DNA of 29,619 nucleotides, from contig CAYSHN010000001.1 in assembly GCA_964430815.1 (NCBI GenBank), positions 1 to 29,619 on the forward strand, read 5' to 3'. Positions 7,880 through 29,619 of the stretch are shown piece after piece; within the stretch, counting starts at the first letter, position 1; every line of letters begins with the position of its first letter. This DNA comes from an uncultured Calditrichota bacterium (GTDB lineage Bacteria; Calditrichota; Calditrichia; JAJRVZ01). The translations under genes and the position numbers were made by a program. The notes under the pieces are model-generated. The model saw only the letters and a program-made list of their open reading frames with translations. It did not search any database and was not told the DNA's origin.

Positions 7880-7940
7880 AATGTTTTTATTGATTTGCCA
7901 AAAGCCAAATATTTATGTAACTAACAGCAGGAATGATATC

Positions 7941-10349: not shown

Positions 10350-10507
10350 CTGTTCCGGCAGTATACACAATATTGCTAAATTACTTTTTAGCAAATATAT
10401 TATTAGTAGTGAGCAAGGTGATATTTGCTGTGTTCTATCACCTGAGAAGGTATATATTGATTACACCGGTTATCTATATTTATCTATACTTTTAAGCGAG
10501 GTGAACT

Positions 10508-13478: not shown

Positions 13479-13809
13479 GATATTTGACCTCCATTATTTT
13501 TTTTAGAATTTTGTTTTGTTCCTCCCAGATAGAGAGAGCTTTTTTCCGCACCGACCGCCCCAGGGGGCTAATGAGGTAAAACTTCTTCGGCCTGTCATCA
13601 CTGACGTCCCATTCGCTCGTGATCAAACCGTTCTTTTCGAGCCTGCGAAGAATGGGATAGAGAGTGTTCTCTTCCACCGTATACCCGGTCTGTTCGAGAA
13701 ACTTCAGCATTTTGTACCCGTACATTTTTTGCTCAAGTACCGCCAGAACGAGGATTTGGAGGAAGCCCCTGTTCATTTCGGTCTCAAGATTTGTGATATC
13801 TATTTCCAT
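13462..13809 (-). CDS. PadR family transcriptional regulator
   Basis: RGFLQILVLAVL...MYGY...ENTLYPILRRLEKNGLITSEW...RPKKFYLISPLGR is a short-type PadR wHTH. Confidence 0.93.
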   Translation of the reverse strand: MEIDITNLETEMNRGFLQILVLAVLEQKMYGYKMLKFLEQTGYTVEENTLYPILRRLEKNGLITSEWDVSDDRPKKFYLISPLGRSVRKKALSIWEEQNKILKKIMEVKYHVSKP

Positions 13810-13839
13810 TTCTCTTCCTTTTATATACTATACGATACA

Positions 13840-13868
13840 AACATACTGTATGTTGCACAGTATATCAA
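13840..13868 (-). promoter_or_regulatory. Sigma70 promoter of padR overlapped by a perfect 7-7-7 operator
   Basis: The - strand reads TTGATA-17nt-TATGTT. The palindrome ATACTGT-N7-ACAGTAT (13843-13863) fills the spacer. Confidence 0.65.
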
Positions 13869-14036
13869 GTATTTTTTCCCTTTATAAATATTGGGGGTTT
13901 ACTTGATATCAGTCTAGGCCCGACAAAGGCTTTTTATTAAAGGTGTGCTTTTTGCTAGGGTTTTTGTCACTGGAAATCGCTAAAAGGAGCTAAAAACTCT
14001 CATATGAGTTTAGAATGGTTTCTTCTGTGGGAATAA

Positions 14037-14144
14037 ATATCCCTTCTCCTGGTGAAATGTTATTGCATTTGAATACTCGACCAGGCCTAAACATAAATTA
14101 TTCTGATCAACATAGTTGTATTCCACACCAGGAGCAGGGGATAT
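14037..14144. repeat. Intergenic 18/19-bp inverted repeat enclosing further stems (structured RNA or MITE-like)
   Basis: ATATCCCTTCTCCTGGTG (14037-14054) versus CACCAGGAGCAGGGGATAT (14126-14144). Internal stems are AAATG/CATTT and GAATAC/GTATTC. Confidence 0.5.
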
Positions 14145-14181
14145 CCATTTAAATTATCAAAAAGACTACTGGCAAAACTAT

Positions 14182-15060
14182 TTATTTAATAAAGAGCATT
14201 CTTTTGCTTTGAGTAAATGTTCCAGCTTCCAGATTGTAGAAATAAGCCCCGGAAGGTAACATCGTATTTGGCTTCCATTGCATGGAATGGTATCCTGCCG
14301 CCATATTCTGCCGGTTAATCAGTTTATCCACAACTTTGCCGCTCACGTCATATACAGTTAAAGTAACTTCGCTGTTCCGTGGTAACGAAAATCCGATTGT
14401 TGTAGATGGATTGAATGGATTGGGATAATTCTGGTTTAGCAAGATGGTCGATGGCAAAACGGAGTTTGCAGTCTCCACACTAGTGGGATTCATGGAAAGA
14501 GATAGATCATCAATTAAAAATTGCGTTCCGATGTGATCAGTCTCGGTTGAATGGTTAGTAACTATAATTTCTATCCATACTGTATCCGGTGTAAATTCCG
14601 GATTGGGATAGTAAATTCCAACTGCGAAAGGGGTATAGGCAGAAGCGGAATTAGAAATCTCAAGTGCACCTGTGCCAATGAAATTCCCACTGTTCGACAT
14701 GGTGACAGCAATAATCAGGACGTCCCCTTCTATAGGTGTAAATTGATAAAATCCTTCCAGGCTTAGATACTTTGCAGAAACGGGAAATCCAGTTCCATCA
14801 TCACCAGACAAAATAATCGGTGGCCAGGGTGTACTCAAAAAATTAACAACCTCACCTTTAAGGGCATAAGATCCACTATGACTGGTATTCGATTGGGTAA
14901 CTGGTACATAAAGTTGTTCAGCATTATTAACACTCCAATGATCGGGAGTATTGCCCGTCCATTGTTCAAAACCACCATTTAGTATTTGGGCAAAACTCAT
15001 TACGGGCAATAAAAAAATTGCTAAGCTACTTAGCAGAACACATGCTGTTACTCTTCTCAT
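14182..15060 (-). CDS. Secreted protein with T9SS type A-like C-terminal sorting domain and a CBM-like NGGFE domain
   Basis: Signal peptide ending SFA-Q, then ILNGGFEQWT. The C-terminus is LNQNYPNPFNPSTTIGFSLP...VTLTVYDVSGKVV...SGAYFYNLEAGTFTQSKRMLFIK*. Confidence 0.88.
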   Translation of the reverse strand: MRRVTACVLLSSLAIFLLPVMSFAQILNGGFEQWTGNTPDHWSVNNAEQLYVPVTQSNTSHSGSYALKGEVVNFLSTPWPPIILSGDDGTGFPVSAKYLSLEGFYQFTPIEGDVLIIAVTMSNSGNFIGTGALEISNSASAYTPFAVGIYYPNPEFTPDTVWIEIIVTNHSTETDHIGTQFLIDDLSLSMNPTSVETANSVLPSTILLNQNYPNPFNPSTTIGFSLPRNSEVTLTVYDVSGKVVDKLINRQNMAAGYHSMQWKPNTMLPSGAYFYNLEAGTFTQSKRMLFIK

Positions 15061-15469: not shown

Positions 15470-17290
15470 GTGCAGATTCTGGGTATTTCTGCTTTTTATC
15501 ATGATAGTGCCGCCGCTCTGGTTAGCGACGGTGATATCCGTGCTGCGGTGCAGGAAGAACGTTTCACCAGGAAGAAACATGATTTTGAATTTCCGGAACA
15601 TTCGATCAATTATTGCCTACAAGCCAATAAATTGCAAGACCAAGACCTGGATTATGTGGTCTTTTATGATAAACCGTTTCTAAAATTCGAAAGAATCCTG
15701 GAAACGTATCTGCAGTATGCACCCTGTGGTTTTAGCTCATTTCGCAAAGCCATCCCCCTGTGGTTGAAAAGAAAACTATGGATAAAAAATCTGATTGAAG
15801 AAGCCTTACCGGGCTTTAAGGGTAAAATATTATTTACCGAGCATCATCAATCCCATGCCGCCTCAGCTTTTTATCCATCCCCGTTTACCAAAGCGGCCAT
15901 CATCACCACGGATGGTGTGGGTGAATGGACCACCACCAGCATCGGTTACGGGGAGCATAATAAAATAAAAATTTTACAGGAAATTTATTTCCCCCATTCC
16001 CTGGGCATGCTTTATTCTGCCTTTACTTATTATACCGGTTTTAAAGTCAATTCCGGCGAGTACAAGGTGATGGGCCTGGCCCCTTATGGTAACCCCATTT
16101 ATGTGCAGAGAATTCTAGACAATCTTATTGATATAAAAGAGGATGGGTCTTTTAAATTAAATATGAAGTATTTTAACTATACTTCCGGTCTGACCATGAC
16201 CAGCCGTCATTTTGATAAACTAATTGCTGGCCCAGCGCGGAAACCGGAATCGCCTTTGCGTCAGGTTGATATGGATCTGGCCCGCTCGGTACAGGATGTC
16301 ATCGAGATCGTTTTAAATAATATGGCCCGTTTTGCCCGGCAGGAGACCGGAGCAACTAAACTTTGCCTGGCCGGTGGGGTAGCCCTTAATTGTGTTGCCA
16401 ACAGTAAAGTTCTGAATCAGGATTTATTCGAGGATATCTGGATTCAACCGGCAGCCGGGGATGCCGGAGGAGCTCTGGGGGCTGCACTGGCGGTGTGGTA
16501 TCAATATCTTGGAAATCACCGGCCGGAACCGGGTGACCATGATCAGCAAAAAGGATCGTATCTGGGACCAGAGTACCCTGATGCTGATATTTTAACTTTT
16601 TTGCAGCAGGATAATATTCCATTTAAAAAATATGATGAAACGGATTTGCTGGAGCAGACAGCAGGATTGATTGCAGCCGGCAAGGTAATAGGTTGGTTCA
16701 AGGGACGCATGGAATATGGTCCGCGGGCTCTGGGTACCCGCAGCATCCTCGGCGATGCCCGTAATCCCGAGATGCAGAAACGGATGAATCTCAAAATCAA
16801 ATTCCGTGAATCATTCCGTCCTTTTGCACCCGCGGTGCTGGCAGAAGAGGCCAATAATTATTTCGTTTTTGACCGGGAAAGCCCTTATATGTTATTTACT
16901 GCCGCGGTAAAGCCGGAATTGCGGCGCGATATGACTACAGAAGAAAAAGCACGTTTCGGTCTGGATAAATTGAATGTGGTACGTTCCAGTCTGCCGGCTA
17001 TTACTCATATTGATTATTCAGCACGATTACAGACGGTGCACCAGGAGACCAATCCCGGATTCTGGAATCTGCTTAAAAGTTTTCAAAAACTAACCGGTTG
17101 CCCGGTGATCATCAATACCTCCTTCAATGTCCGCGGCGAACCGATCGTTTGTACACCACAGGATGCCTATAAGTGTTTTATGCGTACTGAAATGGATTAT
17201 CTGGTGCTGGGGAATTTTTTACTGGATAAAATGGATCAGCCGGAAGAGTCGAAAATGAAGTATAAACAGGAAAAATTCGAACTGGATTAA
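15470..17290 (+). CDS. Carbamoyltransferase (NodU/CmcH/SxtI-like)
   Basis: ILGISAFYHDSAAAL, EERFTRKKH, EHHQSHAASAF, GEYKVMGLAPYG, AGGVALNCVAN, PAAGDAGGA, GPRALGTRSI, FRESFRPFAP and NTSFNVRGEPIV motifs. GTG start after GAGGA. Confidence 0.95.
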   Translation: MQILGISAFYHDSAAALVSDGDIRAAVQEERFTRKKHDFEFPEHSINYCLQANKLQDQDLDYVVFYDKPFLKFERILETYLQYAPCGFSSFRKAIPLWLKRKLWIKNLIEEALPGFKGKILFTEHHQSHAASAFYPSPFTKAAIITTDGVGEWTTTSIGYGEHNKIKILQEIYFPHSLGMLYSAFTYYTGFKVNSGEYKVMGLAPYGNPIYVQRILDNLIDIKEDGSFKLNMKYFNYTSGLTMTSRHFDKLIAGPARKPESPLRQVDMDLARSVQDVIEIVLNNMARFARQETGATKLCLAGGVALNCVANSKVLNQDLFEDIWIQPAAGDAGGALGAALAVWYQYLGNHRPEPGDHDQQKGSYLGPEYPDADILTFLQQDNIPFKKYDETDLLEQTAGLIAAGKVIGWFKGRMEYGPRALGTRSILGDARNPEMQKRMNLKIKFRESFRPFAPAVLAEEANNYFVFDRESPYMLFTAAVKPELRRDMTTEEKARFGLDKLNVVRSSLPAITHIDYSARLQTVHQETNPGFWNLLKSFQKLTGCPVIINTSFNVRGEPIVCTPQDAYKCFMRTEMDYLVLGNFLLDKMDQPEESKMKYKQEKFELD

Positions 17291-17293
17291 AAG

Positions 17294-17698
17294 GTGAAAA
17301 AACTGCCACAAGATCCGACAAAAGAGTTACAAAAATTCTCGGTAGGCCTGTCGATAATTTTAATGTTGATTGCCCTGGCCCAGTATTTTTGGGGTGGTAA
17401 ATTATATTTATATTTTCTGCTGGCTGGTCTGCTGATCCTAGCGATTGGTTTAATTTTCCCAGCCTGGATAAAACCGTTACTGTGGCTCATGACCCGGGTT
17501 GGCAATTTGATGAACTGGGTCATAACCAATTTGATCCTGGCCCTGTTATTCTATTTGGTTTTTACCCTGGTTGCCCTGATTTGGCGCTTGATCGGACATC
17601 GTCCTCTGGATGTACGCTTTCCCGCCGTACAAAGAAGTTATTGGCGGAAACGGACAGACGGAGAAATTTCTCCGCAGCAGTTTGAGAAGCAGTATTAA
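17294..17698 (+). CDS. SxtJ-family membrane protein
   Basis: Starts 3 nt after the carbamoyltransferase stop. Pattern KELQKFSV...LKPL..LM...GNLMNWV...LILALLFYLVFT....WRLIGHRPL....SYW.KR....QQFEKQY. Confidence 0.85.
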   Translation: MKKLPQDPTKELQKFSVGLSIILMLIALAQYFWGGKLYLYFLLAGLLILAIGLIFPAWIKPLLWLMTRVGNLMNWVITNLILALLFYLVFTLVALIWRLIGHRPLDVRFPAVQRSYWRKRTDGEISPQQFEKQY

Positions 17699-17701
17699 GT
17701 A

Positions 17702-17932
17702 AAGTACCTTAGTCCCTTAGTCCCTAAGAAAAGATTAAAGATTTAAAAATTCATGGGGTGATGATGACGTAGGCATCAAATGTTTGTTACAATCAAGAAC
17801 ATACCAACTAAAAATACGACCCTGGTGGGTCGAATAAGTCCAACAAGAAACAATATCATGGTACACAGAGTATAAAAGGCAAATTGGTACAAAGTCACTT
17901 AGGGACTCAGGTACTAAGGGACTCAGGGACTA
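17702..17932. repeat. Mirror-image tandem octamer arrays (TAGTCCCT / AGGGACTC-A) with a central REP-like hairpin
   Basis: 17702-17725 reads AAGTACCT TAGTCCCT TAGTCCCT. 17901-17932 reads AGGGACTC AGGTACTA AGGGACTC AGGGACTA. The hairpin CGACCC-TGGT-GGGTCG lies at 17817-17832. Confidence 0.7.
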
Positions 17933-18088
17933 AAAGATTGCATATATAAACGGTGCCAGCGCTGAGCCCTGCGAGAGAATAATCAAAGCACTCAGTAATA
18001 GTAGAAGCAAAATGATAGGGGCCAGCCACCATTTTTTCCTGACCTTTATAAAATCCCAAAATTCGCCGACGATTGCTAATTTTCCCAT
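17930..18088 (-). CDS. DUF5989-family (SxtK-like) small membrane protein, 52 aa
   Basis: MGKLAIVGEFWDFIKVRKKWWLAPIILLLLLLSALIILSQGSALAPFIYAIF* carries the RKKWWL.P...S.LAPFIY.IF signature. AAGGA SD precedes ATG 18088. Confidence 0.88.
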   Translation of the reverse strand: MGKLAIVGEFWDFIKVRKKWWLAPIILLLLLLSALIILSQGSALAPFIYAIF

Positions 18089-18281
18089 TAATTTCCTTCT
18101 ACTATAAATCCACAAGACGACAATTTGGTACTTATTTTTCAATAAGTTTTCATGAGTGCATCAAGAACCTGATTTATAAAGATAAATAAAAAACAGGCAG
18201 GAAAAAAGATAATAAAATTTTGATTTATACAGGTTGCCAGATTATAAAGCATAAGAAAATCAGCGAGGATAATTTTTTTTC

Positions 18282-18569: not shown

Positions 18570-20270
18570 ATGCGTTTTCTATCTGGTGAAATGAAATCAT
18601 CGAAATACTTTCTGTTAATCTGCTTATTGAGTCTGTTTAGTCAGTGCAGTCAGGTTGACTATAAAAATGATCCTGCTGTTTTAGCTCTGGTTGACCAGCA
18701 AACCATAACTCGTGAACAATATATCACCCGCTATCAGGATGTCATTCGCCGGACAGGATTGACAGATAATATGGAAGCCAGGCAACAAATATTGAATGGT
18801 CTGATTAATGAATATCTGTTAATCAGGGAAGCTTATTCCCGGGAACTGGATGCCGGTTCTGCTGGTCAGCAGGAGTATGAAAGGATAAAAATTCAGGAAT
18901 TATTAAATTCCTTTAATCGAGAATTCATCCAATCCAAAATAACGGTTAATAGTGACGAGTTGAAAAAACTTTATACGGATATGAATACAAAAGTTTTAGC
19001 CCGTCATCTCTATGCCCCCACCAAACAAAAAGCCGATTCACTGTATAACTTATTACAGAGGGGAATACCCTTCGAAAGACTAGCTGCTGAAAATTTTAAT
19101 GATCCTGTTTTACGTGAATCGGGTGGCTCCCTGGGCTATTTCTCGGTAGATGAGATGGACCCTGCTTTTGAAGAAGCAGCATTTGCCCTGGGCGTAGGTG
19201 AAACATCAAAACCAGTACGAACAAGTGATGGCTATAGCATTATAAGATTGGATAACCGCTGGACCAAACCGATTATCACTGAGACAGAATATGCTCAAAA
19301 ACGACCACAACTGGAAAAATACTGGATTAACCGCAAGACGGTACGAGCCACCCAACGGTATACCGACTCTCTGCGCCAGACGTTGAACATTTCGTTTAAT
19401 GAACCTTTAATTCAGGAATTATTCCGGTTGTCACAGGAAAAACAGAAACAGGGTATGATCGAACAGAATCAATTAATGTTTTCAGAAGCAGACCAAATGA
19501 AAAATCAGATCGTTCTCTCCAGTGCAGCAGGAGACTGGGATATCCAGATGTTAAAGGATCAAGCCAGATTTACTTCACCGGCACAGCAAAGCTGGATTCG
19601 TGACCCGGAGAATTTAAAAGATTTTATTGCAGGGCTAGTTGTCCGGTCGTATATTTTAAAACAGGCCCGGGAAGCAGGTTTGAATGAAACTGCTGACTAT
19701 AAAAAACGGGTAGCTGAGGAGTTTGACAATTATCTCCTGGAATCTATGGAAAATCATATTATTCAGGACATGGAAATTCCTCAAGATTCACTTCTTAATT
19801 ACTATAATGACGATCCACAACGTTTTGCAATCCCTGCCAAAGTATATCTGCGTGAAATTGTATTAAATGATAAAAGGGATATAAGTCTGATTTCAGGCAA
19901 ACTGGAACAGGGATCTGATTTTGCTGATCTAGCTAGGCAATATTCAGTTCGCCGGCGAAGCGGCGTTGACGGGGGAGCTCTTGGTTATTTGACCCCCGAA
20001 GATCTGGGGTCCTGGTCTGCTCAGATATTTACTCTTCAACCAAATGAATGGCGCGGTCCTTTCCAGTCTGATTCCTTGTATATTTTTTTACAATGCGTTG
20101 AAAAAAAGCCGGTTCAACCACGTACGTTTGAAGCCGCCAGGGAAGATGTAGGAAAAACGCTCCGGAGTCTATGGCAAGAAAGAGAGCGAAATAGGATAAT
20201 AGCCGAGATCCGCTCCAGAGTAAAAGTGGTAACCTATTCGGATAAATTAAAAAACATTCGGATTAACTAA
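18570..20270 (+). CDS. Peptidyl-prolyl isomerase/foldase with two parvulin (rotamase) domains, probable lipoprotein
   Basis: Lipobox-like FSQC. Rotamase 1: RHL...FERLA..NF.D...SGGSLGYF..DEMDPAFEEAAFAL.VGETSKPVRTSDGYSII. Rotamase 2: LREIV...DFADLARQYS...DGGALGY. The start may be ATG 18591. Confidence 0.88.
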   Translation: MRFLSGEMKSSKYFLLICLLSLFSQCSQVDYKNDPAVLALVDQQTITREQYITRYQDVIRRTGLTDNMEARQQILNGLINEYLLIREAYSRELDAGSAGQQEYERIKIQELLNSFNREFIQSKITVNSDELKKLYTDMNTKVLARHLYAPTKQKADSLYNLLQRGIPFERLAAENFNDPVLRESGGSLGYFSVDEMDPAFEEAAFALGVGETSKPVRTSDGYSIIRLDNRWTKPIITETEYAQKRPQLEKYWINRKTVRATQRYTDSLRQTLNISFNEPLIQELFRLSQEKQKQGMIEQNQLMFSEADQMKNQIVLSSAAGDWDIQMLKDQARFTSPAQQSWIRDPENLKDFIAGLVVRSYILKQAREAGLNETADYKKRVAEEFDNYLLESMENHIIQDMEIPQDSLLNYYNDDPQRFAIPAKVYLREIVLNDKRDISLISGKLEQGSDFADLARQYSVRRRSGVDGGALGYLTPEDLGSWSAQIFTLQPNEWRGPFQSDSLYIFLQCVEKKPVQPRTFEAAREDVGKTLRSLWQERERNRIIAEIRSRVKVVTYSDKLKNIRIN

Positions 20271-20291
20271 AGCTTAAAAAGGTAAATTCAC

Positions 20292-23063
20292 ATGAAGAAA
20301 ACTAACAGTTTATTTTCATTCATCATCTTATTAGGGCTTGGACTCCCATTAGGTCTGTTGGCACAGAATAGCGGTAAAATAGCCGGAACTGTGACAGATG
20401 CCCAGACAAATGAAATCCTGATCGGTGCTAATGTGGTTATAGAAGGAACCATGTTAGGTTCCGCTACTGACCTGGAGGGAAATTATTTTATACTTCGTAT
20501 CCCCCCCGGCAAGTATAATGTTAGTGTAGCCTACATCGGCTATCAAAAACTTGTCTATCATGATGTACAGGTTATGACGGATTTAACAACCCGCCTGGAT
20601 TTTAAAATCAAACCGGAAACACTCAGTGCTGAGGAAATCGTCGTTGTCGCTGAAGCGCCGGTGATCCGTAAGGATCTCACGTCTTCTGAAGCCAGGGTTC
20701 AGTTTGAGGAAATAGAAAGAATGCCGGTCCAGGAGTTGAGCGATTTATTGGATATGCAGGCTGGTATCGTGCGGGATGCAGGAGGGGGTATCCATATTCG
20801 TGGGGGACGTACCACCGAAGTATCCTATATGGTAAATGGCATCAGTATAACCGACGATTTTTACCGGACCCAATCACTACAAGTGGAGAATGAATCAATA
20901 CAGGAATTGCAGGTAATCAGCGGAACCTTTAATGCTGAATATGGAAATGCCATGAGCGGTATCGTAAACGTGGTGACCAAAACCGGTGGAAATGAATTGT
21001 CCGCGGATCTGGAAGTATGGGCCGGTGATTATTTAAGCAGCCGCAATGATATTTTTTGGAATATCGACAATTTCAATGTGACCGATATTTATAATATTCA
21101 GGGAAGTGTCAGTGGTCCCCTTATACCCAATAAACTCTCCCTCTATGCCACAGCCCGCCGCTGGTATACCGATGGCTGGCTTTATGGCATCAATTACTAT
21201 TTACCGCAGGGCAGAAGCCGGGTGGTTAACGGGGATACGGTGAGTGCGCTCGGGGATGGCAGTGCGGTAGCGATGAATTTCAGGGACCGCTGGAGCGGTC
21301 AGGCCACCCTGGAATGGCAAATTGCTACACCATTCAAATTCAGGATTGATGCCCTGGGCAGTTACGAAGAAAGACGGAATTATAACCATTTTTATAAATG
21401 GAATCCTAATGGTGATAAAGGTGATGTAGAAAACGGTTACAGTGTCATCTCCAATGTCATCCACCAGCTGGGAGTAAATACTTTTCATGAAATTACGCTG
21501 GCCTATAAATATAACGATCTCGTCTCCAAATTATATGATAACTATAATGATTCCCGCTATGTACATCCTGATTCTGCGAATACCGGAGCGCAACAATTTG
21601 CTAAAGCCGGCACCAATCTGGGTTACTTTGACCGCAGCAGTGAAAGCCGCATAGCCAAGTATGCTCTGACCAGCCAGCTGACCAAACGGCATCAGGTCAA
21701 AACAGGTCTGGAGATACAATCGGACAAGGTTTATTATAATGATATTACTCTGGTTCCGGCAGAAGATGAATTAGGCCAGCAAATTGAACCTTTCGTACCC
21801 TATATTACTGATATTACAACTTCCACTCATAATGAATTTACCCGTAAACCATTCAAATTTTCAGCATATATCCAGGATAAAATTGAATATGAAAGTTTAA
21901 TCATCAACATTGGAATGCGTTATGATTATTTCGATGCCAACGGTAAAATTCCTAAAGATCCGGAAGATCCGAATATCTATAATCCCTCCAAGTTGAATAA
22001 TATTTACCGCGATACCAACGGTGATGGTGTGATCGATTTATCCGAACGAACAGTTGAAAACGAATTAACGGTTGAAGAAAGAGAAGCATTCTGGTATAAT
22101 GAAACTTCGGTTAAAACGCAGTTAAGCCCCCGTCTGGGCGTAGCCTATCCGATAACCGAGCAAGGGGTTATTCACTTCTCCTACGGCATCTTCCAGCAGA
22201 TTCCTGAATATTACCGTTTGTATATATCCGATCAAATCAAGATCTCGAAATCGGCGGGAGTTTATGGTCCTTACGGTAATCCCGATTTGAAGCCGGAACG
22301 TACCACCATGTACGAACTCGGTCTGCAGCAACAGTTCAGCACTGATTTAGCTATTGATGTTACCGGTTTTTATCGTGATATCAGAAACTGGATCTCGACC
22401 AGTGCTCAGATTCCGACTAACCTGAGTGGTGTCTCTTATGTGATATTCAACAATCGGGATTTTGCTAATGTGCGGGGAATTACCCTGTCGGTTGATAAGA
22501 AATTTTCTCAAAATTATTCCTTTACAGTTGACTACACCTACCAAATGGCTGAAGGAACTAATTCAAATCCCGAACAGGAATTTAACTCCCAGCAGGGAGG
22601 TGCCGAACCGACCAAGATTCTGACCCCGCTGGATTGGGATCAGCGACACTCGATAAATGCAAATCTTTTCATAGGCAGTGGCAGCTGGGGTGGCAGTTTG
22701 ATCGGTCGTTTCAATAGCGGTCAGCCTTATACGCCTTCGTCGGTTACCGCCACCAGAACCGGACAAAGTATCCTGGCTGGATTGCCCGATAACAGTAGAA
22801 GTAAACCGGATCTATTTACGCTTGATTTTACAGCCTATAAGAATTTTATTTACAAAGATTTCAATTTTCAGATTTTTTTGAAAATATTTAATTTACTGGA
22901 TGCAGCTAATCCGTTGTCCGTTTATACGGATACCGGCCGGGCGGATTATACCTTGTTGTTATTAACCCAGGCCGCACAGGCGGACAATACCTGGTTTGTA
23001 AATCCCGGTTATTATTCCGAACCGAGACGAATTCAAATTGGCACGAAAATAAGTTTTAGATAA
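20292..23063 (+). CDS. TonB-dependent receptor (carboxypeptidase-regulatory-like N-domain, plug, barrel)
   Basis: Signal peptide; GKIAGTVTDAQTNEILIGANVVIEGT...ATDLEGNYFILRIPPGKY; plug HIRGGRTTEVSYMVNGI...GTFNAEYGNAMSGIVNVVTKTG; LKPERTTMYELG; ends PRRIQIGTKISFR*. Confidence 0.93.
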   Translation: MKKTNSLFSFIILLGLGLPLGLLAQNSGKIAGTVTDAQTNEILIGANVVIEGTMLGSATDLEGNYFILRIPPGKYNVSVAYIGYQKLVYHDVQVMTDLTTRLDFKIKPETLSAEEIVVVAEAPVIRKDLTSSEARVQFEEIERMPVQELSDLLDMQAGIVRDAGGGIHIRGGRTTEVSYMVNGISITDDFYRTQSLQVENESIQELQVISGTFNAEYGNAMSGIVNVVTKTGGNELSADLEVWAGDYLSSRNDIFWNIDNFNVTDIYNIQGSVSGPLIPNKLSLYATARRWYTDGWLYGINYYLPQGRSRVVNGDTVSALGDGSAVAMNFRDRWSGQATLEWQIATPFKFRIDALGSYEERRNYNHFYKWNPNGDKGDVENGYSVISNVIHQLGVNTFHEITLAYKYNDLVSKLYDNYNDSRYVHPDSANTGAQQFAKAGTNLGYFDRSSESRIAKYALTSQLTKRHQVKTGLEIQSDKVYYNDITLVPAEDELGQQIEPFVPYITDITTSTHNEFTRKPFKFSAYIQDKIEYESLIINIGMRYDYFDANGKIPKDPEDPNIYNPSKLNNIYRDTNGDGVIDLSERTVENELTVEEREAFWYNETSVKTQLSPRLGVAYPITEQGVIHFSYGIFQQIPEYYRLYISDQIKISKSAGVYGPYGNPDLKPERTTMYELGLQQQFSTDLAIDVTGFYRDIRNWISTSAQIPTNLSGVSYVIFNNRDFANVRGITLSVDKKFSQNYSFTVDYTYQMAEGTNSNPEQEFNSQQGGAEPTKILTPLDWDQRHSINANLFIGSGSWGGSLIGRFNSGQPYTPSSVTATRTGQSILAGLPDNSRSKPDLFTLDFTAYKNFIYKDFNFQIFLKIFNLLDAANPLSVYTDTGRADYTLLLLTQAAQADNTWFVNPGYYSEPRRIQIGTKISFR

Positions 23064-23082
23064 TTAAAGCAGGTAGATACTT

Positions 23083-26000
23083 ATGAATCTAAGCAAAATA
23101 CTAAACAGGTTAATTAGACCAGCTTTCAGGTTTTGGATCCTGAGTTTGGTGTTCTATGTAATCACCCTGGCACCCGTTCAGGTTCAGGGTTATGTTCCTT
23201 CCGATAACCGGGCCGATGCAAACTATCGAAGACATTCTAACCTTGATGGGAATAATGTACGGGTTACCGTGCACAATTTTGGTCTGAATGGCTGGGAAAG
23301 CAAAGAACCTGATTTATGGGGATTTGAATGGCCTAAAAATACCAAACGGGAATATATCGTATTTGTATCGATATGGTTGGGTGGTGAAGTGACCAACGAT
23401 CTGGGCGAAACGGTGAATATTGTGGATATTTCGACATCCCGCAGCAGTCCCACTGGTAATCCGTACAGTTTATTACCGGTTCCCGGTTTTCTTAATCCTG
23501 ACCATCCTAACAAGGAATTAGCCCGAAGTGATGATCTGACCAGCTGGCCGCGGGCAGCCGATGGCGGTTGGAAGGATAAAATGGATGATACAAACGATCC
23601 TGGTTGGATCGGTTCCTGGAATGGTTTTTTTGGTAAAAATGTATATAATGCCGATTTGGAGATGTATTATCGCTGTGGCGATGATTTGTATAACCGGGGA
23701 AATTATATCCCCGATACAACCGATCGAACTCGCGGTGGCCTGGGACTGCTGATGGATGAAAGAGCCTTTGCCTGGACTCAGATCCTGATCAACGACGTGG
23801 TCTTTTTTATCAATGATATTAAAAATGATGCCACCAAGCGGATTGGCAGAACAGTATTTACCATCTGGCTGGCTGATCTGGTCGGCGGCGATTCCAATGA
23901 TGATGAACCATACGTAGACCTGCAAACCAATATAGCCTTTTTAACCGATCATGACCGTGTTGGAACCGATCCCTGGGCAGGAACGACGGTTGGACTGGGA
24001 TCAGTCAAATACATTGAAACACCTGGAAATCAGGTGAATGGTATTGATGACGACGGTGATGCTGACGCTGAAGAAAATGCTAATCTGCTGACCAGAATAG
24101 ATGGTGATCCGGCAGTGCGGATACCTCTATTCACCAGTGATGATTTTAGTTCACGAAGTTTATCAGCCGGTGATAAGATCGTGCTGATTGATTCAAGCAC
24201 TTTTGAAAGACAGATCATTGAATATCCAGCAGGAGGCGGGCTCGTAAAAACATTGGGTCGGATGGTAGAACTGCCGGTGGACGGAATCACGCTTACGGAG
24301 GATACTCTTTTTAATTCTATTGATGACGACCTGGACGGCTTAATTGATGAACGAATATCACTACATTTGCAACGATTCAATGATATTACCGGGTCAATTG
24401 TACCGGTGCGCTATATCAATTATCTGTCATTTAATGTTGGTGATACCATTAAACGTGGGTTCGTGGTAGCGGGAAAAGGTGCAGTTCAGAATTATCAGAA
24501 TGTTGCACCGATGATCGATGAATCGCGTGATGACGCTTTTGATAATGATAATGATTGGGATCCGTTTCAGGACGACCTGGGTTTGGATGGAGCAGAAAAT
24601 ACCGGTGACCAGGGGGAAGGTGATGGTGTACCCTCCAGTGGTACTGGTACTGAACGCCCGGGAGAGCCGAGTATTGATAAAACTGATGTCAGTGAAACAG
24701 ATCTGATCGGTATAACCGGTGCCCTGCAATTCCCAGCCTTCAGTTTAAATTTTTCTACAATGAAAGACAGGGTCATAATGCTTAATTACATGCGACCGGG
24801 CTATTTCAGTCTGCCGCGCAGAACCGGAGAGTACGATTTGTGTGTATCTTCCGGATATTTCCCGCTGGATCCGGGTGAAAGGCAAAGGATGGCTGTTTCT
24901 GTGGCCATGGCCGGTGGCGGTGTAACTAAAAACGATGATATCCAAAGTGCTATTAAAAAGCAGAAACAGGCACGTATTGCTTATGAATCCGATTATCGCT
25001 TTGCCCAGGCTCCGCTCCAGGTAACGCTTACTGCTGTTCCGGGGGATGGAAAGGTCACTTTATACTGGGATGATGTTGCCGAATCATCTGTCGACAATTT
25101 TATTAAACGCCTGGATTATCCCAATGCCGCTGAAATGTCTCGCGATTTTGAAGGATACCGGGTTTATCGCTCGACCGATGCGGCCATGCTGGATCCAATG
25201 GTAATTACCGATGGCAAAGGTAATAAATTGATGCGGGTACCAATTGCTCAATTTGATCTGAAAGATGGGTTAACAGAGTACCATCCCATTGATATTTATG
25301 GGATAAAATACTGGCTTGGTGACGATTCAGGTCTTCAACACAGTTATGTAGATTCCGGACTCACCAATGGACAGCGTTATTTTTATGCTGTTACCGCATA
25401 TGACCGTGGTTTTACTGACGCTGAAATTGCACCGACTGAAACACCCATCCGGATTGATGTGGACACCCAGGGCAATATTGTTACCGGGGTTAATGTGGCA
25501 GTGGTTCGTCCCCGTGCGCCAGTGGCGGGATATCTACCGGCAGAAGTCGACAGTTTCATTCATGTCAGCGGTTCTTCCACGGGGCAGATCGGGATCAAGA
25601 TTATCGATCCGCGCTGGATCAAACAGGGTCATGAATATCAATTGATCTTTGAAGATACGCTGATCCGCGGAACAGTTCTGGATGTGCTAACCACGAAAAA
25701 CTTTACGCTAACGGATCTTACCGTCGATAGTGTAATGATAGATAAAAGTACCAATTTGGCAGCTGACTACGAACAACCGATACTCGATGGATACCGCTTA
25801 ATATTTACTAATGAAGATAAAGTAATGACCGATCCGGAAAAGGCAAAGTGGTCAGATCCTAACATTTTTGAATTCCAATTTAGTCCGGTTCAATTTCTCA
25901 ATATAAAAGGAGTACAAAATCCCTTTGATTACGTGGTAGTTTTTGGAGATGTTGGCATGTCAACTTCCAAAGATACCTCGATAAGTTTCTCTCATATGCC

Positions 26001-26715
26001 GGCGAAAGATGTTAATTTTAAGATATTGAATATTTCAAAGAATAATATACCGATCGAGTTCGCATTTGGTGAGATTGATGGTACAGACGGAAAATTTTCC
26101 ATTGACACTAGTGATGCGGATAATGCAGATGTAATCCGGTTTCTGGAACCTAATGCACAGGGAAAACTGATCTGGACTTGGCAATTGATTTTAAATTTAC
26201 AACCACAACCGCCTGTTGGTCGTAATCCTGATTCGGGTGATTCCCTGTTTTTGTATCTGCGTAAACCATTTTTATCCAGTGATAGCTACCGTTTTAAAAT
26301 GAAAACAGAATCGTTGTCAACGCAACTGGCCAAGGCACAACTTGACAGAATCCGGGTGGTTCCGAACCCGTATATTGCTGCCGAGACCTGGGAACCGTTC
26401 AATACATACTCCAGCGGACGCGGCCAACGCGAGATACATTTCATCAATTTACCGCCTAAATGTACCATTCGCATCTTCAACGTTTCCGGTGAACTTATCG
26501 ATAAGATTGAATACGACAGCAGGGTCGATGCCAACAAGGAAGTTACTGGTTTGAAGCGGCTCACGGATGGAACCGATAGCGGTTTGAATGACGGTACCGC
26601 CATCTGGGATTTATTGAGTAAAGATAAGCTGGAAATTTCATATGGAATCTATCTATATCATATTCAGGCACCGGGTATCGGGGAAAAAACAGGAACTTTT
26701 GCGATAATTAAATAA
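23083..26715 (+). CDS. Large secreted protein (1210 aa) with Asp-rich Ca-binding-like motifs, an FN3-like module and a variant T9SS/FlgD-like C-terminal domain
   Basis: Signal-like N-terminus; LDGNNVR...FEWPK; DDDGDAD, DDDLDGLIDE and DNDNDWD..DDLGLDG; FN3-like LTAVPGDGKVTLYWD...FEGYRVYRS...YVDSGLTNGQRYFYAVTAYD. C-terminus is IRVVPNPY...IHFINLPPKCTIRIFNVSGELI...WDLLSKD...YGIYLYHI...GTFAIIK*. Confidence 0.8.
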   Translation: MNLSKILNRLIRPAFRFWILSLVFYVITLAPVQVQGYVPSDNRADANYRRHSNLDGNNVRVTVHNFGLNGWESKEPDLWGFEWPKNTKREYIVFVSIWLGGEVTNDLGETVNIVDISTSRSSPTGNPYSLLPVPGFLNPDHPNKELARSDDLTSWPRAADGGWKDKMDDTNDPGWIGSWNGFFGKNVYNADLEMYYRCGDDLYNRGNYIPDTTDRTRGGLGLLMDERAFAWTQILINDVVFFINDIKNDATKRIGRTVFTIWLADLVGGDSNDDEPYVDLQTNIAFLTDHDRVGTDPWAGTTVGLGSVKYIETPGNQVNGIDDDGDADAEENANLLTRIDGDPAVRIPLFTSDDFSSRSLSAGDKIVLIDSSTFERQIIEYPAGGGLVKTLGRMVELPVDGITLTEDTLFNSIDDDLDGLIDERISLHLQRFNDITGSIVPVRYINYLSFNVGDTIKRGFVVAGKGAVQNYQNVAPMIDESRDDAFDNDNDWDPFQDDLGLDGAENTGDQGEGDGVPSSGTGTERPGEPSIDKTDVSETDLIGITGALQFPAFSLNFSTMKDRVIMLNYMRPGYFSLPRRTGEYDLCVSSGYFPLDPGERQRMAVSVAMAGGGVTKNDDIQSAIKKQKQARIAYESDYRFAQAPLQVTLTAVPGDGKVTLYWDDVAESSVDNFIKRLDYPNAAEMSRDFEGYRVYRSTDAAMLDPMVITDGKGNKLMRVPIAQFDLKDGLTEYHPIDIYGIKYWLGDDSGLQHSYVDSGLTNGQRYFYAVTAYDRGFTDAEIAPTETPIRIDVDTQGNIVTGVNVAVVRPRAPVAGYLPAEVDSFIHVSGSSTGQIGIKIIDPRWIKQGHEYQLIFEDTLIRGTVLDVLTTKNFTLTDLTVDSVMIDKSTNLAADYEQPILDGYRLIFTNEDKVMTDPEKAKWSDPNIFEFQFSPVQFLNIKGVQNPFDYVVVFGDVGMSTSKDTSISFSHMPAKDVNFKILNISKNNIPIEFAFGEIDGTDGKFSIDTSDADNADVIRFLEPNAQGKLIWTWQLILNLQPQPPVGRNPDSGDSLFLYLRKPFLSSDSYRFKMKTESLSTQLAKAQLDRIRVVPNPYIAAETWEPFNTYSSGRGQREIHFINLPPKCTIRIFNVSGELIDKIEYDSRVDANKEVTGLKRLTDGTDSGLNDGTAIWDLLSKDKLEISYGIYLYHIQAPGIGEKTGTFAIIK

Positions 26716-26786
26716 TCGTAAGCTAGTTTAAATGTAAATCCGTCGCAGGTTAGCATGACAGTACAAATAAATATAATTTTATAGGA

Positions 26787-27851
26787 ATGAAGAATATTAT
26801 GAAGAGAATAGCACAATCTCTGAACCAGCAGGCAACAGCAGGATTACTGCTGGTGGTTTTTCTCTTACTGTTTGGTAGCGCAAGTATGGCTCAGGATGTG
26901 AAAAAAGTCGGAACCTCGGCAGCTACTTTCTTAAAAATACCAGTCGGAGCCAGAGGTATATCTATGGGAGGTGCATTTGTTTCTATCGCTGATGATCCGA
27001 GTGCATTATACTGGAATCCGGGTGGCCTCTCACGTATCGAAAAATATTCCCTGATGGTGGATCACTCTCCCTGGTTACCAGGTTTAAGTTTCAATTTTAT
27101 TGGTCTGGTTATGCCTTTAGAATCTTTTGGTACACTGGGCATCAGCGTAACCTCGCTTAGCACCGCCGAAATGGATGTGACCACTCCCGCAAATCCTATG
27201 GGTACCGGTGAAAAATTTGATGCAGCATCAATGGTTGCCGGTGTCTCGTATGGCCGGAAGTTAACGGATAGATTTACCATTGGGGGTACAGTAAAGTACG
27301 TTAATGAGCGAATTATGAATTGTTCAGCAACCGGTCTAGGTGTTGATCTCGGTACAATTTATAATACTCCGTTATCCGGATTACGAATGGGTTTCAGTGT
27401 TTCAAACTTTGGTACAAAGATGCAAATGGACGGTGAAGATCTTAATGTGCGTGTGGATATCGATCCCAGCCAGTTGGGTAATAATCAGAGTGTGGTCGGA
27501 CGGTTAAAGACGGATAGTTTCGATCTGCCTCTGATCATGCGGTTGGGACTGTCGTATGATGCCTGGCAGGCTGAGAACACGCGGGTGACCGTGGCGGCGG
27601 ATGGAATTAATCCCAACGATAATGCGCAATTCCTTAATGTTGGGGCCGAAGCGGCTTTTCTCGGTGAAATGCTGATTATCAGTGGAGGTTTTTCGGAACT
27701 GTTTCTGGAAGACCGTGAAAAAGGTTTAACAATGGGAGCCAGTTTTAATCCTAATATCATCAGTGGTGTCGGTCTTAATGTCGGCTATGCTTTTCAAAGT
27801 TTTCAACATTTACCAGATGTAAATAGATTTACTTTAACAGTATCATTTTAA
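26787..27851 (+). CDS. PorV/PorQ-family outer-membrane beta-barrel protein
   Basis: KVGTSAATFLKIPVGARGISMGGAFVSIADDPSALYWNPGGL is the FadL/PorV-type N-terminal signature. Also SYGRKLTDRFTIGGTVKY, DLGTIY, GFSVSNFGTKM, and a C-terminal RFTLTVSF* beta-signal. Confidence 0.88.
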   Translation: MKNIMKRIAQSLNQQATAGLLLVVFLLLFGSASMAQDVKKVGTSAATFLKIPVGARGISMGGAFVSIADDPSALYWNPGGLSRIEKYSLMVDHSPWLPGLSFNFIGLVMPLESFGTLGISVTSLSTAEMDVTTPANPMGTGEKFDAASMVAGVSYGRKLTDRFTIGGTVKYVNERIMNCSATGLGVDLGTIYNTPLSGLRMGFSVSNFGTKMQMDGEDLNVRVDIDPSQLGNNQSVVGRLKTDSFDLPLIMRLGLSYDAWQAENTRVTVAADGINPNDNAQFLNVGAEAAFLGEMLIISGGFSELFLEDREKGLTMGASFNPNIISGVGLNVGYAFQSFQHLPDVNRFTLTVSF

Positions 27852-27938
27852 TCGGTGAGGAAAGGAGGGCCAATCTTTAAAAAATTCAGAAGCAATTTAC
27901 TATATCATTTTTAATTTGACGAATTTAAGGAGGTCTTT

Positions 27939-29619
27939 ATGACGTCAAGGTTTACATTGTTAACTTTTACAGTTTTATTTATCCTGAGCCTGGGATTAAC
28001 TGTACAGGCCCAGAATGTATTTGTGACTTTTCGTTTTAATTCCTGCACCAACCTGGATACGCTTAAAGCATCTAACGGCTTTGTCGAAATGAGAGGTGCA
28101 TTGAATACAGTTGCGCCGAATAATCTTCCTAATGGCCAGGTAATCGACTGGAGTGCCTCATCAACTCTGGAAATGGTCAATGTTGGTGGTGATTATTGGG
28201 AACTTACCGTGGAAATGGCACCCGAGGATACACTGTATTATAAATACTGGACAGGATATTCACCCTCCGTGGGAACCTTTCCTGACGGCGGCTGGGAAGG
28301 TCCATTCCTTCCTTCCAACGGCCTGACCTGGAATACGCGAACTTTCATTTCGGGGACTACGGATAGCGTATTAGACGTACAGTACTATCATCCGAGCACA
28401 GCTGGAACGGTTGACCAATACTTAGCGCCGTTTGAGAACAAAGCAGATTCCGTAGCCGTATATTTCCGGGTCAATATCGGTGGTGAAATGGAAGCGGAGA
28501 GATTTAATCCGGCCAGCAATGGCCCTGTTGGCGTCCGCGGTAATGGCGGTGGTACAGGCCAGGTCCTGAGTTGGGATATCACCAAAGTTCTATTGAACTG
28601 GGAAGAAGGTAGTGTTTATCGGACAGGTTCCTTCTGGTCAGGTGTTGCTTATTTTCCAAAAGACAGTTTGACAGTGGGAGAACAGCAGGCCTTTAAATTT
28701 TATGCGGAAAATACATCCGACTTCAGCTGGGAAGACGGTGGCGACCATAAGTTCAAATATCCGGTTGGTTTGAAAGACACGACTATTGCCTGGACCTGGT
28801 TCAGTAATAAACCGATTACGGGTACCGCGCCGGTAACGAGTATCATAACCTGGCGGGTCAGCACAGAAGCGCTTAAAGCCATCGGCATGTTCGATCGTGG
28901 TGTCGGTGATGAAATATCGGTAAGAGGGCCTCGAGGCTGGGATGTAGATGTTCCATTATATTATGAACCTACTTTAAAGGAATGGGATTCAGCCAATGAA
29001 GAGTTCAAATTACCTCCGGGAACAGAAATTTTTTATAAATACTATGTGAACTGGGATTCTTCCCGCTTTGATACCTTAAGCCCAAATTACATCAAGGGAA
29101 TCAGGGCGAATGATAATGGTTGGGAGGAACCGGGCAGCACAGGCGGCGGTAACCGTATCCATGTATTTCAGGATGCAGCCGAACAGACCGTAACCGGCGA
29201 TTTTGGTTTTGACCGCCAGTTCTTTAACAGCGTACCGGCCAACGGTGTTTTTGATATTCCTATCACTGTTACCTGGAATGTGGACATGACCAATGCCACT
29301 AATGCCGATTCCAATACGCTAGGCGATCTGTTCAGACCGGGTCTGGATACTGTCTGGGTTCTGTGGGATGGCGAACTGCTGGCTATTGCCCAGGGTCAGG
29401 ATATGTGGTATGATATAAATAATAATCGTGATTCGCGCTTTTTAATGCTGACAGATGGAAACGGCGACATGATCTATAGCGGATCGTATACCATAGCACC
29501 GACGGAAAAATTTCCTAATGGCTGGTTTCAGCTTGGCTACAAGGTGGCCTACTCTACTTCTGATGGTGGCAGAATTATACATGGTACGGGTAATGAGAGA
29601 GGCCGCCGCTATCTGCAGT
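27939..29619 (+). CDS. Secreted multi-domain protein with tandem CBM20-like (starch-binding-type) modules, truncated at the right edge
   Basis: Not in the ORF track. AAGGAGG-N5-ATG 27939 opens a frame of 560 codons to the edge. Signal peptide MTSRFTLLTFTVLFILSLGLTVQA, then repeated V.F/W.VN...V.G...W...W...YK(Y/F)...WE...(N)R patterns. Confidence 0.8.
   Translation, partial: MTSRFTLLTFTVLFILSLGLTVQAQNVFVTFRFNSCTNLDTLKASNGFVEMRGALNTVAPNNLPNGQVIDWSASSTLEMVNVGGDYWELTVEMAPEDTLYYKYWTGYSPSVGTFPDGGWEGPFLPSNGLTWNTRTFISGTTDSVLDVQYYHPSTAGTVDQYLAPFENKADSVAVYFRVNIGGEMEAERFNPASNGPVGVRGNGGGTGQVLSWDITKVLLNWEEGSVYRTGSFWSGVAYFPKDSLTVGEQQAFKFYAENTSDFSWEDGGDHKFKYPVGLKDTTIAWTWFSNKPITGTAPVTSIITWRVSTEALKAIGMFDRGVGDEISVRGPRGWDVDVPLYYEPTLKEWDSANEEFKLPPGTEIFYKYYVNWDSSRFDTLSPNYIKGIRANDNGWEEPGSTGGGNRIHVFQDAAEQTVTGDFGFDRQFFNSVPANGVFDIPITVTWNVDMTNATNADSNTLGDLFRPGLDTVWVLWDGELLAIAQGQDMWYDINNNRDSRFLMLTDGNGDMIYSGSYTIAPTEKFPNGWFQLGYKVAYSTSDGGRIIHGTGNERGRRYLQ

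Follow-up and report, generated by a model that had tools for sequence, protein, structure and literature searches.

SusC/SusD loci account for glycan foraging in the Bacteroidia, and the reuse of one outer-membrane core with varied enzyme sets is a hallmark of such polysaccharide-utilization locus (PUL)-type systems. Sediments, hot springs, soils and the ocean harbor abundant sister lineages of the Bacteroidia, and to our knowledge the uptake of polysaccharides by these lineages is largely unexplained. Here we describe a five-gene unit, called the module below, at the end of a 29,619-nucleotide stretch of DNA from an uncultured Calditrichota bacterium (GenBank assembly GCA_964430815.1, contig CAYSHN010000001.1, positions 1 to 29,619 of the forward strand); this whole stretch, at its full length, is referred to as the window. 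The module encodes, in this order, a peptidyl-prolyl isomerase (PPIase), a TonB-dependent receptor, a secreted protein of 1210 residues (hereafter the big protein), an outer-membrane barrel of the PorV/PorQ family, and a secreted protein of the carbohydrate-binding module 20 (CBM20) family. We think that these five genes probably form the core of a PUL built on a plan other than that of the SusC/SusD pair, and that they most likely take in plant or storage polysaccharides without a SusD partner.

Components resembling those of the module have been described in protein secretion and in outer-membrane biogenesis. In the system for type IX secretion (T9SS), PorZ and PorU keep their C-terminal domains (CTDs), which are bound to PorQ and PorV, respectively (PMC10202324), and substrates that carry a CTD of type B need a PorP/SprF-like barrel that is encoded directly downstream and by which they are targeted or anchored, cleavage of the CTD being improbable (PMC10202324, PMC12618676). 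The fold of the T9SS CTD is described as a 3+4 sandwich of strands beta1-beta7, and the system is reported to be possibly present in Ignavibacteriota and Rhodothermota (PMC11285876). In the dome of the Bacteroidota beta-barrel assembly machinery (BAM), the FadL-like barrel BamG anchors the surface proteins BamH-K, which include PPIases (PMC12578637).

The five genes of the module lie in a row on the + strand of the window, with spacers of 21, 19, 71 and 87 nt. Gene 1 (18570..20270, +; 566 aa) encodes a SurA/PrsA-like parvulin PPIase and probable lipoprotein, recognized by Pfam Rotamase domains and a lipobox-like Cys; gene 2 (20292..23063, +; 923 aa) encodes the TonB-dependent receptor, with CarboxypepD_reg, Plug and TonB_dep_Rec_b-barrel domains; and gene 3 (23083..26715, +; 1210 aa) encodes the big protein, which has a signal peptide and no lipobox, and whose family is annotated solely as hypothetical. 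Gene 4 (26787..27851, +; 354 aa) encodes the barrel, identified by the NF033709 model, and gene 5 (27939..29619, +), which is cut by the window end after at least 560 aa, encodes the CBM20-family secreted multi-domain protein, assigned by a CBM_20 family match and by the T9SS type-A CTD of its full-length orthologues. The original prediction, made by a model from the letters and translated reading frames without database searches, had described five co-directional genes with gaps of about 20, 20, 70 and 90 nt, coding for a foldase lipoprotein, a TonB-dependent receptor, a CTD-bearing protein of 1210 aa, a PorV/PorQ-like barrel and a multi-CBM20-like secreted protein; the measured spacers agree with this description, as do the domain assignments of genes 1, 2, 4 and 5 given below, and the call of a CTD on gene 3 was borne out in part. 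Scans of the window for promoters and terminators gave no excess over shuffled expectation (32 vs 27.7 and 15 vs 11.1, respectively), no internal terminator stood out in the terminator scan, and a scan of the window with Rfam found no RNA family.

Related loci were taken as the best 80 of at least 586 stretches that encode relatives of the big protein in a one-genome-per-species collection. Their gene order was read from tblastn searches with the five window proteins combined with open reading frame (ORF) calling, in which ORF starts were set mechanically, and their taxon names are the labels of the public records. The 80 loci come from Calditrichota, KSB1/Zhuqueibacterota, Ignavibacteriota/Melioribacteraceae (including Rosettibacter primus), Rhodothermales, Balneolales, Marinimicrobia and WOR-3. 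Among these loci, the receptor gene lies directly upstream of the big-protein gene in 74/75, the barrel gene directly downstream of it in 72/74, and the PPIase gene directly upstream of the receptor gene in 68/71; the two exceptions to the barrel order are a frameshifted assembly and a locus where a further CTD gene separates the two. A CBM20-family gene follows the barrel in 58 loci, all five positions occur in the same order in 53 of the 80, and elsewhere the order holds essentially wherever the contig permits. The predicted conservation of the order receptor, big protein, barrel is thus confirmed, and an order that is near-invariant across phyla shows that the arrangement is not due to chance. 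When identities to the window copies were compared across loci, those of the big protein were strongly correlated with the values for every other component, r being 0.97 for the receptor, 0.95 for the barrel, 0.93 for the CBM protein and 0.88 for the PPIase, and this correlated divergence of the components indicates that the five genes are inherited as a unit. The module is therefore a five-gene unit that is co-inherited in at least six lineages of the Fibrobacterota-Chlorobiota-Bacteroidota (FCB) group.

A SusD-like gene after the receptor, whose absence had been noted in the original prediction, was found neither in the window nor in any of the 80 related loci, including the contig of a Calditrichia metagenome-assembled genome (MAG), L029, the closest relative, which runs collinear with everything in the window from position 15644 onward (84-85% nucleotide identity). 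No SusD family is present in the annotated flanks of the related loci, and the gene after the receptor has no SusD or tetratricopeptide repeat (TPR) match in Pfam. A few loci depart from the common plan: a WOR-3 locus (L075) is without the PPIase and has an extra CTD protein of 949 aa between the big protein and the barrel, and the PPIase is also missing from L063 and L080. In L029, the big-protein gene (7896-11523) and the CBM20 gene (12747-14880) are each split into two overlapping ORFs, and because the rest of this contig is collinear with the window, these splits are probably assembly frameshift errors and not pseudogenes.

Domain calls on the window proteins were based on Pfam gathering scores and on NCBIfam curated or equivalog cut-offs. 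The gene 1 product scores above the parvulin membership threshold and carries two parvulin PPIase domains, with matches to Rotamase_3 (100.6 bits, E 1.1e-28), Rotamase (84.8 bits, E 8.6e-24) and Rotamase_2 (78.4 bits, E 1e-21); its matches to SurA_N are weak and below the Pfam cut-off, and those to NCBIfam PPIase models stay under the equivalog cut-offs. At its N-terminus (...LLSLFSQC...) a lipobox-like Cys26 follows the signal segment, and the Cys closing this segment is retained by most orthologues, so that the product is a probable lipoprotein. The gene 2 product begins with a CarbopepD_reg_2 domain ahead of the plug (residues 30-118; 67.8 bits, E 8.7e-19), which is the SusC-type N-terminal feature, and continues with matches to Plug (PF07715; 41.3 bits, cut-off 23.9, E 2.4e-10) and TonB_dep_Rec_b-barrel (PF00593; 93.4 bits, cut-off 27, E 3.8e-26). 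It falls far short of the SusC/RagA model TIGR04056 (87.4 bits vs a cut-off of 368.25), to which residues 29-234 alone match, and its sequence matches in the PDB are confined to the plug and the CarboxypepD-like N-terminal domain, with no SusC-like chain among them. From these scores, gene 2 is classed as a receptor gene whose product resembles SusC in its N-terminal domain and plug but has a barrel of generic, non-SusC type.

The big protein, over its full length, has zero matches in Pfam or NCBIfam. A database search returned 615 homologues, from KSB1, Calditrichota and Melioribacteraceae among others, of which the best 120 align over the full length at 54-88% identity and every named one is called a 'hypothetical protein', and a HMMER search that covered 1.84 billion cluster representatives gave 2872 relatives at the level of 50%-identity clusters with E<=1e-3 and 453 with E<=1e-30. 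Very many Asp, Gly, Trp and Tyr positions are invariant in the family alignment, which also contains several D-rich motifs. The AlphaFold2 (AF2) model of the full mature protein is mostly beta and multi-domain (mean predicted local distance difference test score, pLDDT, 74; predicted template modeling score, pTM, 0.56). Foldseek comparison of this model with the PDB returned PorZ 5m11 (E 1.4e-5, template modeling (TM) score ~0.1) and FN3-domain chains alone, and the assignment of a function from the full model was dropped, as TM-scores of ~0.1 identify none; no solved structure was matched by a PDB sequence search with the full-length family profile. The N-terminal 440 residues of the mature protein (23188..24507, +), which are mostly beta and contain the conserved D-rich motif GNQVxGIDxDGDAD, were modeled alone by AF2 on 86 sequences with a pLDDT of 85.2 and a pTM of 0.75, and Foldseek found nothing significant for them in the PDB (best E 0.16, probability 0.02); this region is thus a confidently predicted fold without a solved relative. 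After it comes an acidic Asp/Gly-rich loop region (24514..24705, +; mature residues 443-506), in which near-invariant columns, with a motif (DESRDDxFDNDxDW...DKTDVSETD) that is nearly unchanged across the family, coincide with pLDDT values <50, and which by resemblance could possibly bind Ca2+. In a diverse set of 38 relatives of the big protein, six, some of them ~1500 aa long, have Reg_prop beta-propeller repeats (best E 1.8e-17) and one weakly matches the N-terminal propeller of PorZ, which hints that the family is connected with PorZ-like surface proteins.

By profile comparison, the big protein ends in a divergent, atypical T9SS CTD (26350..26712, +). This part contains a PNPY motif, a conserved insert of ~20 residues (AAETWEP..SGRG.RE), the strand pattern of a CTD and a terminal FAIIK, and AF2 places seven strands at mature residues 1056-1173. 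Its profile aligns with that of the Por_Secre_tail CTDs encoded by neighboring genes (hhalign 96.2%, E 2.2e-9, 56 columns), and its single sequence match in the PDB, a weak one, is the CTD of PorU (E 0.21). Pfam and NCBIfam miss the domain: the big protein does not reach the gathering threshold of the T9SS type-A CTD (PF18962/TIGR04183), and the last 140 residues of the window copy match CHU_C (PF13585) alone and weakly (15.3 bits vs 27, E 0.022). Among the 38 diverse relatives, 11 match CHU_C (weakly, best E 0.0013), five match FlgD_ig and four match Por_Secre_tail (best E 7.3e-7). The CTD foreseen in the original prediction therefore stands as a homology detected by hhalign, but not as a domain that the family models recognize. 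The conserved insert (mature residues 1061-1079) is near-invariant and yet has pLDDT values <50 in the AF2 model, a pattern that would fit a segment which takes up an ordered structure only when bound to a partner.

The barrel encoded by gene 4 belongs to the PorV/PorQ family, with 184.5 bits against a cut-off of 90 for NF033709 (residues 43-354 on model positions 1-326) and 27.4 bits against 27 for Pfam PorV, and its sole solved relative by sequence is PorV of F. johnsoniae (6h3i_F, E 2.6e-7). All equivalog models score it under their cut-offs: PorV NF033710 (68.1 vs 250), PorV2 NF052325 (71.5 vs 325) and PorQ NF033711 (92 vs 220), of which PorQ is the top-scoring one. Paralogous modules occur within single genomes. 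Two contigs of one MAG (L013 and L016) each carry a complete module, with barrels 53%, big proteins 59% and receptors 55% identical; a further locus (L047) has two modules in tandem, whose barrels are 51% identical, and in L063 the receptor and big-protein genes are present as tandem copies, 58% identical. The possibility that the barrel is the single housekeeping PorV of its genome, which would have undone the original prediction, is ruled out by the sub-equivalog scores and by the two genomes with one barrel per paralogous module (51-53% identical). Judged from its family membership and these paralogues, the barrel is a module-specific paralogue of PorV/PorQ.

The genes that surround the module in related loci place it in a carbohydrate context. 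On the collinear L029 contig, the module is followed by a galactanase of glycoside hydrolase (GH) family GH53 with a Por_Secre_tail, and then by a GH2 enzyme. A Melioribacteraceae locus (L001) has GalK, GalT and GH2 before the module and GH53-CTD and GH5 after it, and a locus from Calditrichae (L003) has GH31, an esterase and an alpha-amylase before it and GH53, GH5 and a sodium:solute symporter family (SSF) transporter after it. In other loci we found GH13 amylases (some with CBM48 and a CTD), LacI, SSF and ATP-binding cassette (ABC) sugar transporters, a substrate-binding protein and a recurrent GDSL/TPR protein. One and the same core is joined to interchangeable enzyme sets: a galactan type, to which the closest relative of the window belongs, has GH53, GH2/GH5 and Leloir genes, and an alpha-glucan type has GH13, LacI and sugar transporters. 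Genes for GH13, GH53, GH2 or GH5 are located nearby in 47/58 loci of at least 15 kb, and these carbohydrate-active enzymes (CAZymes), together with the LacI and sugar-transporter genes around the core, lend strong support to the glycan-uptake role that the original prediction had proposed.

The window copy of gene 5 stays below the CBM_20 cut-off (PF00686; 21.5 bits vs 23.3), CBM_20 is matched by 26/38 members of its family (best E 9.7e-12), CBM53, CBM48 and AMPK1_CBM match some members, and Por_Secre_tail is found in 37/38; the family profile matches the starch-binding domain of a glucoamylase (2vn4_A, E 1.9e-6), and the full counterpart in L029 is ~710 aa long. From the collinear L029, we expect a GH53 galactanase and a GH2 enzyme to be encoded just beyond the window end, and since this contig carries GH53 and GH2, beta-1,4-galactan is the likeliest substrate of the window locus. 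Starch or maltodextrin, to which the original prediction had pointed, was set aside as first choice for the same reason, with an alpha-glucan still a possible substrate through the CBM20-family gene. GH53 galactanases (L001, L003, L029 and others) share ~265 residues with the N-terminal part of the CBM20-family protein at 36-47% identity (most at 41-47%), and by this common region the CBM20-like modules of GH53-type loci may bind galactan rather than starch. Right after the CBM20 gene, L034 (14937-16880) and ~20 other GH13-type loci encode a protein of ~648 aa that joins a GDSL-like lipase/acylhydrolase to C-terminal TPRs and could be a carbohydrate esterase.

We propose that the components of the module act together at the cell surface. 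The big protein and the CBM20 protein would cross the inner membrane via Sec and the outer membrane via the T9SS, after which the big protein would retain its conserved CTD and stay docked in the cognate barrel encoded next downstream; docking is proposed because big protein and barrel are encoded on the principle seen in known cognate pairs, that is, from synteny and by analogy to PorZ-PorQ and to the pairs of type-B CTDs and PorP. The docked big protein would be held at the surface beside or over the receptor, in place of a SusD lid or surface lipoprotein, while the CBM20 protein and T9SS-secreted GH53 or GH13 enzymes would bind and cut the polymer and the receptor would import the oligosaccharides on TonB energy. 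The PPIase, a probable lipoprotein in most lineages, would chaperone the assembly of this large outer-membrane complex. The whole sequence, from export, docking and placement beside the receptor to polymer cutting, import and PPIase assistance, seems to us a rather likely account of the module. A wider and more specific version of it, about which we are nearly evenly divided and lean slightly towards doubt, holds that a TonB importer, together with a surface protein of 1200 aa held not by a lipid anchor but by permanent docking of a specialized CTD in a dedicated PorV/PorQ-like barrel, with PPIase assistance, is the principal means by which Calditrichota, KSB1, Ignavibacteriota, Rhodothermia/Balneolia and Marinimicrobia capture glycans, and that the N-terminal 440 residues are a new fold with a generic lid or feeding role.

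Several observations weigh against this proposal. The 29.6 kb of genome in hand end before any enzyme gene, so that the enzyme context is taken from related loci, and 11/58 loci of at least 15 kb have none of the four tested GH families nearby. The big protein is without a domain that Pfam, PDB profile or Foldseek searches would recognize as carbohydrate-binding or SusD-like, and it is 54-60% identical between phyla, far above what is usual for SusD or surface glycan-binding proteins. When the big protein was placed in a neighbor-joining tree, the deep clades went with GH13 and one large clade with GH53, but a Calditrichota subclade mixes GH13-type and GH53-type loci, and the enzyme type is thus tracked only partly. 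Such high conservation, combined with loose tracking of the enzyme type, suggests a generic structural or mechanical role, or an enzymatic one, rather than substrate recognition. Finally, when indels of the ~20-residue CTD insert were compared with those of the barrel, only artefacts of ORF starts were correlated, and the insert is limited to one clade.

Some of these points are shared by the idea that the big protein is itself a surface-anchored enzyme or processing factor, e.g. a new glycanase, which the barrel would still anchor but which would be no substitute for SusD. Many invariant Asp, Glu, Arg, Trp and Tyr residues over 1200 positions, a cross-phylum conservation that would sooner be expected of an enzyme or a component of a machine than of a protein that binds glycans, and an N-terminal fold that leaves room for an activity would all fit such an enzyme, and glycan binding could come from the CBM20 protein instead. 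We nevertheless regard this as unlikely, given that Pfam, NCBIfam, PDB sequence search and Foldseek returned no catalytic family, and that the occurrence of the same family beside alpha-glucan and beta-galactan sets is hard to fit with a bond-specific hydrolase. It is also conceivable, if rather improbable, that the module serves the T9SS or outer-membrane biogenesis as an accessory, namely as a PorZ/PorQ-like attachment unit with its own foldase that secretes or attaches the CTD enzymes encoded nearby rather than capturing glycans, the receptor being no more than a co-regulated importer. PorZ 5m11 is the best whole-model Foldseek match of the big protein, but its TM-score is ~0.1 and the match may be due for the most part to the CTD and to generic beta domains; likewise, propellers of the Reg_prop type and the weak match to the PorZ propeller come from the distant relatives (6/38 and one, respectively), whereas the window protein is without a propeller match. 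The top equivalog score of the barrel, for PorQ, would suit an accessory as well, and the BAM dome of Bacteroidota is also built from FadL/PorV-like barrels and surface PPIases (PMC12578637). Against such an accessory stands the presence of several divergent modules per genome, each tied to its own receptor, and a general secretion function would have no need of the bond between receptor and big protein, which is closer than any other in the module (74/75 loci, r 0.97).

Myxococcus Oar is a TonB-dependent barrel that works outward, and the receptor might be thought of as an Oar-like dedicated exporter of the big protein or of the CBM protein, having an N-terminal CarboxypepD_reg domain with a generic, non-SusC barrel and a gene that always stands directly before that of a very large secreted protein. 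Both candidate cargoes have T9SS-type CTDs by which their route is already specified, and LacI, SSF/ABC transporters, cytoplasmic or periplasmic GH2 and GH13 enzymes and Leloir genes fit import, which leaves an export role very improbable. That the five genes became neighbors through chance or a loose drift of operons and do not work together has a next to negligible probability in view of the same order across several phyla, with all five positions kept in 53/80 loci, and of the correlated divergence. Surface capture by the docked big protein, coupled to import through the receptor, remains the account that we prefer.

Just upstream of the module, the window holds, side by side, a carbamoyltransferase gene (15470-17290, +; Carbam_trans_N/C, E 4.9e-97), a gene for an SxtJ-like small membrane protein (17294-17698, +) and one for a DUF5989 mini-protein (17930-18142, -; E 3.3e-23). 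All three stretches align to L029 at ~85% nucleotide identity, and L029 has ORFs of equal size in the corresponding position for the carbamoyltransferase (616 aa) and the SxtJ-like protein (134 aa). Two 26-nt inverted repeats (17703-17728 and 17898-17923), 88% complementary and made up of TTAGTCCCT units, bracket ~170 nt that are the only non-aligning stretch relative to L029 within 15644-18088 and may be an inserted element of small size or an intergenic repeat that forms a hairpin. Further upstream, a 292-aa protein (14182-15060, -) has a canonical Por_Secre_tail / FlgD_ig C-terminal domain and an N-terminal part without a family match, so that the organism encodes ordinary T9SS-type cargo. 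A PadR-family regulator gene (13462-13809, -) overlaps the start of another gene (12540-13478, -), whose 312-aa product has a HAAS domain at its N-terminus, and the two look like a PadR-linked membrane sensor pair.

A full-text literature search found no description of the module, and the genome papers of Melioribacter roseus and Caldithrix abyssi do not mention it; the module appears never to have been studied before, in keeping with the original prediction, which knew of no functional characterization. A classical SusCDE operon has been reported in M. roseus (PMC3534657), and MAGs labeled M. roseus carry the module, so that it looks like a further system and not strictly like a substitute for SusC/SusD. 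The predicted architecture of non-Bacteroidota FCB lineages that replaces SusD stands as far as the absence of SusD across FCB lineages is concerned, but the module also occurs in Rhodothermales and Balneolales, and the SusCDE operon of M. roseus speaks against a strict replacement. With at least 586 stretches in a one-genome-per-species collection, and a central protein that represents thousands of unannotated sequence clusters, the scale of the system is considerable. Should the proposed mechanism be true, glycan loci would become recognizable in genomes where SusD-based PUL predictors find nothing, cognate CTD-barrel pairs, as in the attachment complex and in gliding adhesins, would gain a role in nutrient import, and the 'cognate shuttle' principle of the T9SS would have been recruited to nutrient-uptake complexes. 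The big protein offers a new large fold for structural study, and cultured hosts exist (Melioribacter roseus, Rosettibacter and Caldithrix abyssi).

Compared with the systems described at the outset, the module combines features of several of them. Like the BAM dome, it would use a FadL/PorV-like barrel as a platform for extracellular proteins, along with dedicated PPIase lipoproteins; unlike the dome, it is without BamA and BamD, sits in a carbohydrate context, and its barrel scores negligibly with the BamG model (15.6 bits vs 250). With the type-B pairs (SprB-SprF, Fjoh_3952-Fjoh_3951, PG1035-PorP) it shares a substrate gene directly ahead of its own barrel gene, and the C-terminus of the big protein gives weak matches to CHU_C, the type-B family, but its barrel is of the PorV/PorQ family, with no PorP/SprF family among its Pfam matches, and the CTD of the big protein aligns best with type-A CTDs. 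Moreover, the type-B cargoes known so far are adhesins, some of which come with PorE, and no pairing with a TonB-dependent receptor, as here, is known for them. In the PorZ-PorQ and PorU-PorV pairs of Porphyromonas gingivalis, a large secreted protein retains its CTD and a FadL-like barrel of 14 strands holds it at the surface (PMC10202324), as is proposed for the module. The barrel of the module falls into the same PorV/PorQ family, nearest to PorQ by score, and the only PDB match of the CTD is that of PorU; the barrel is, however, no PorQ or PorV equivalog, the big protein is unrelated to PorZ and PorU beyond the CTD, and the pair is part of a nutrient-uptake operon that is present in several copies per genome and strictly linked to a TonB-dependent receptor.

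The resemblance to a Bacteroidota PUL lies in the overall layout, with a TonB importer that has the SusC-type CarboxypepD_reg domain and plug, and that is encoded together with surface glycan-binding proteins, secreted and periplasmic GHs, a regulator (here LacI) and inner-membrane sugar transporters, as well as in the use of one core with different enzyme sets; the CAZyme, regulator and transporter genes by which a PUL is recognized lie outside the window, in L029 (GH53-CTD, GH2) and in 47 of the 58 long related loci. The differences concern the outer membrane itself. The module has no SusD and its receptor barrel is outside SusC/RagA (87 bits vs 368); a PPIase gene stands ahead of the receptor, which is followed by a 1200-aa non-lipoprotein with a T9SS-type CTD and then by a barrel of the PorV/PorQ family, and the surface proteins of the module are apparently anchored or exported via the T9SS and not by lipidation.

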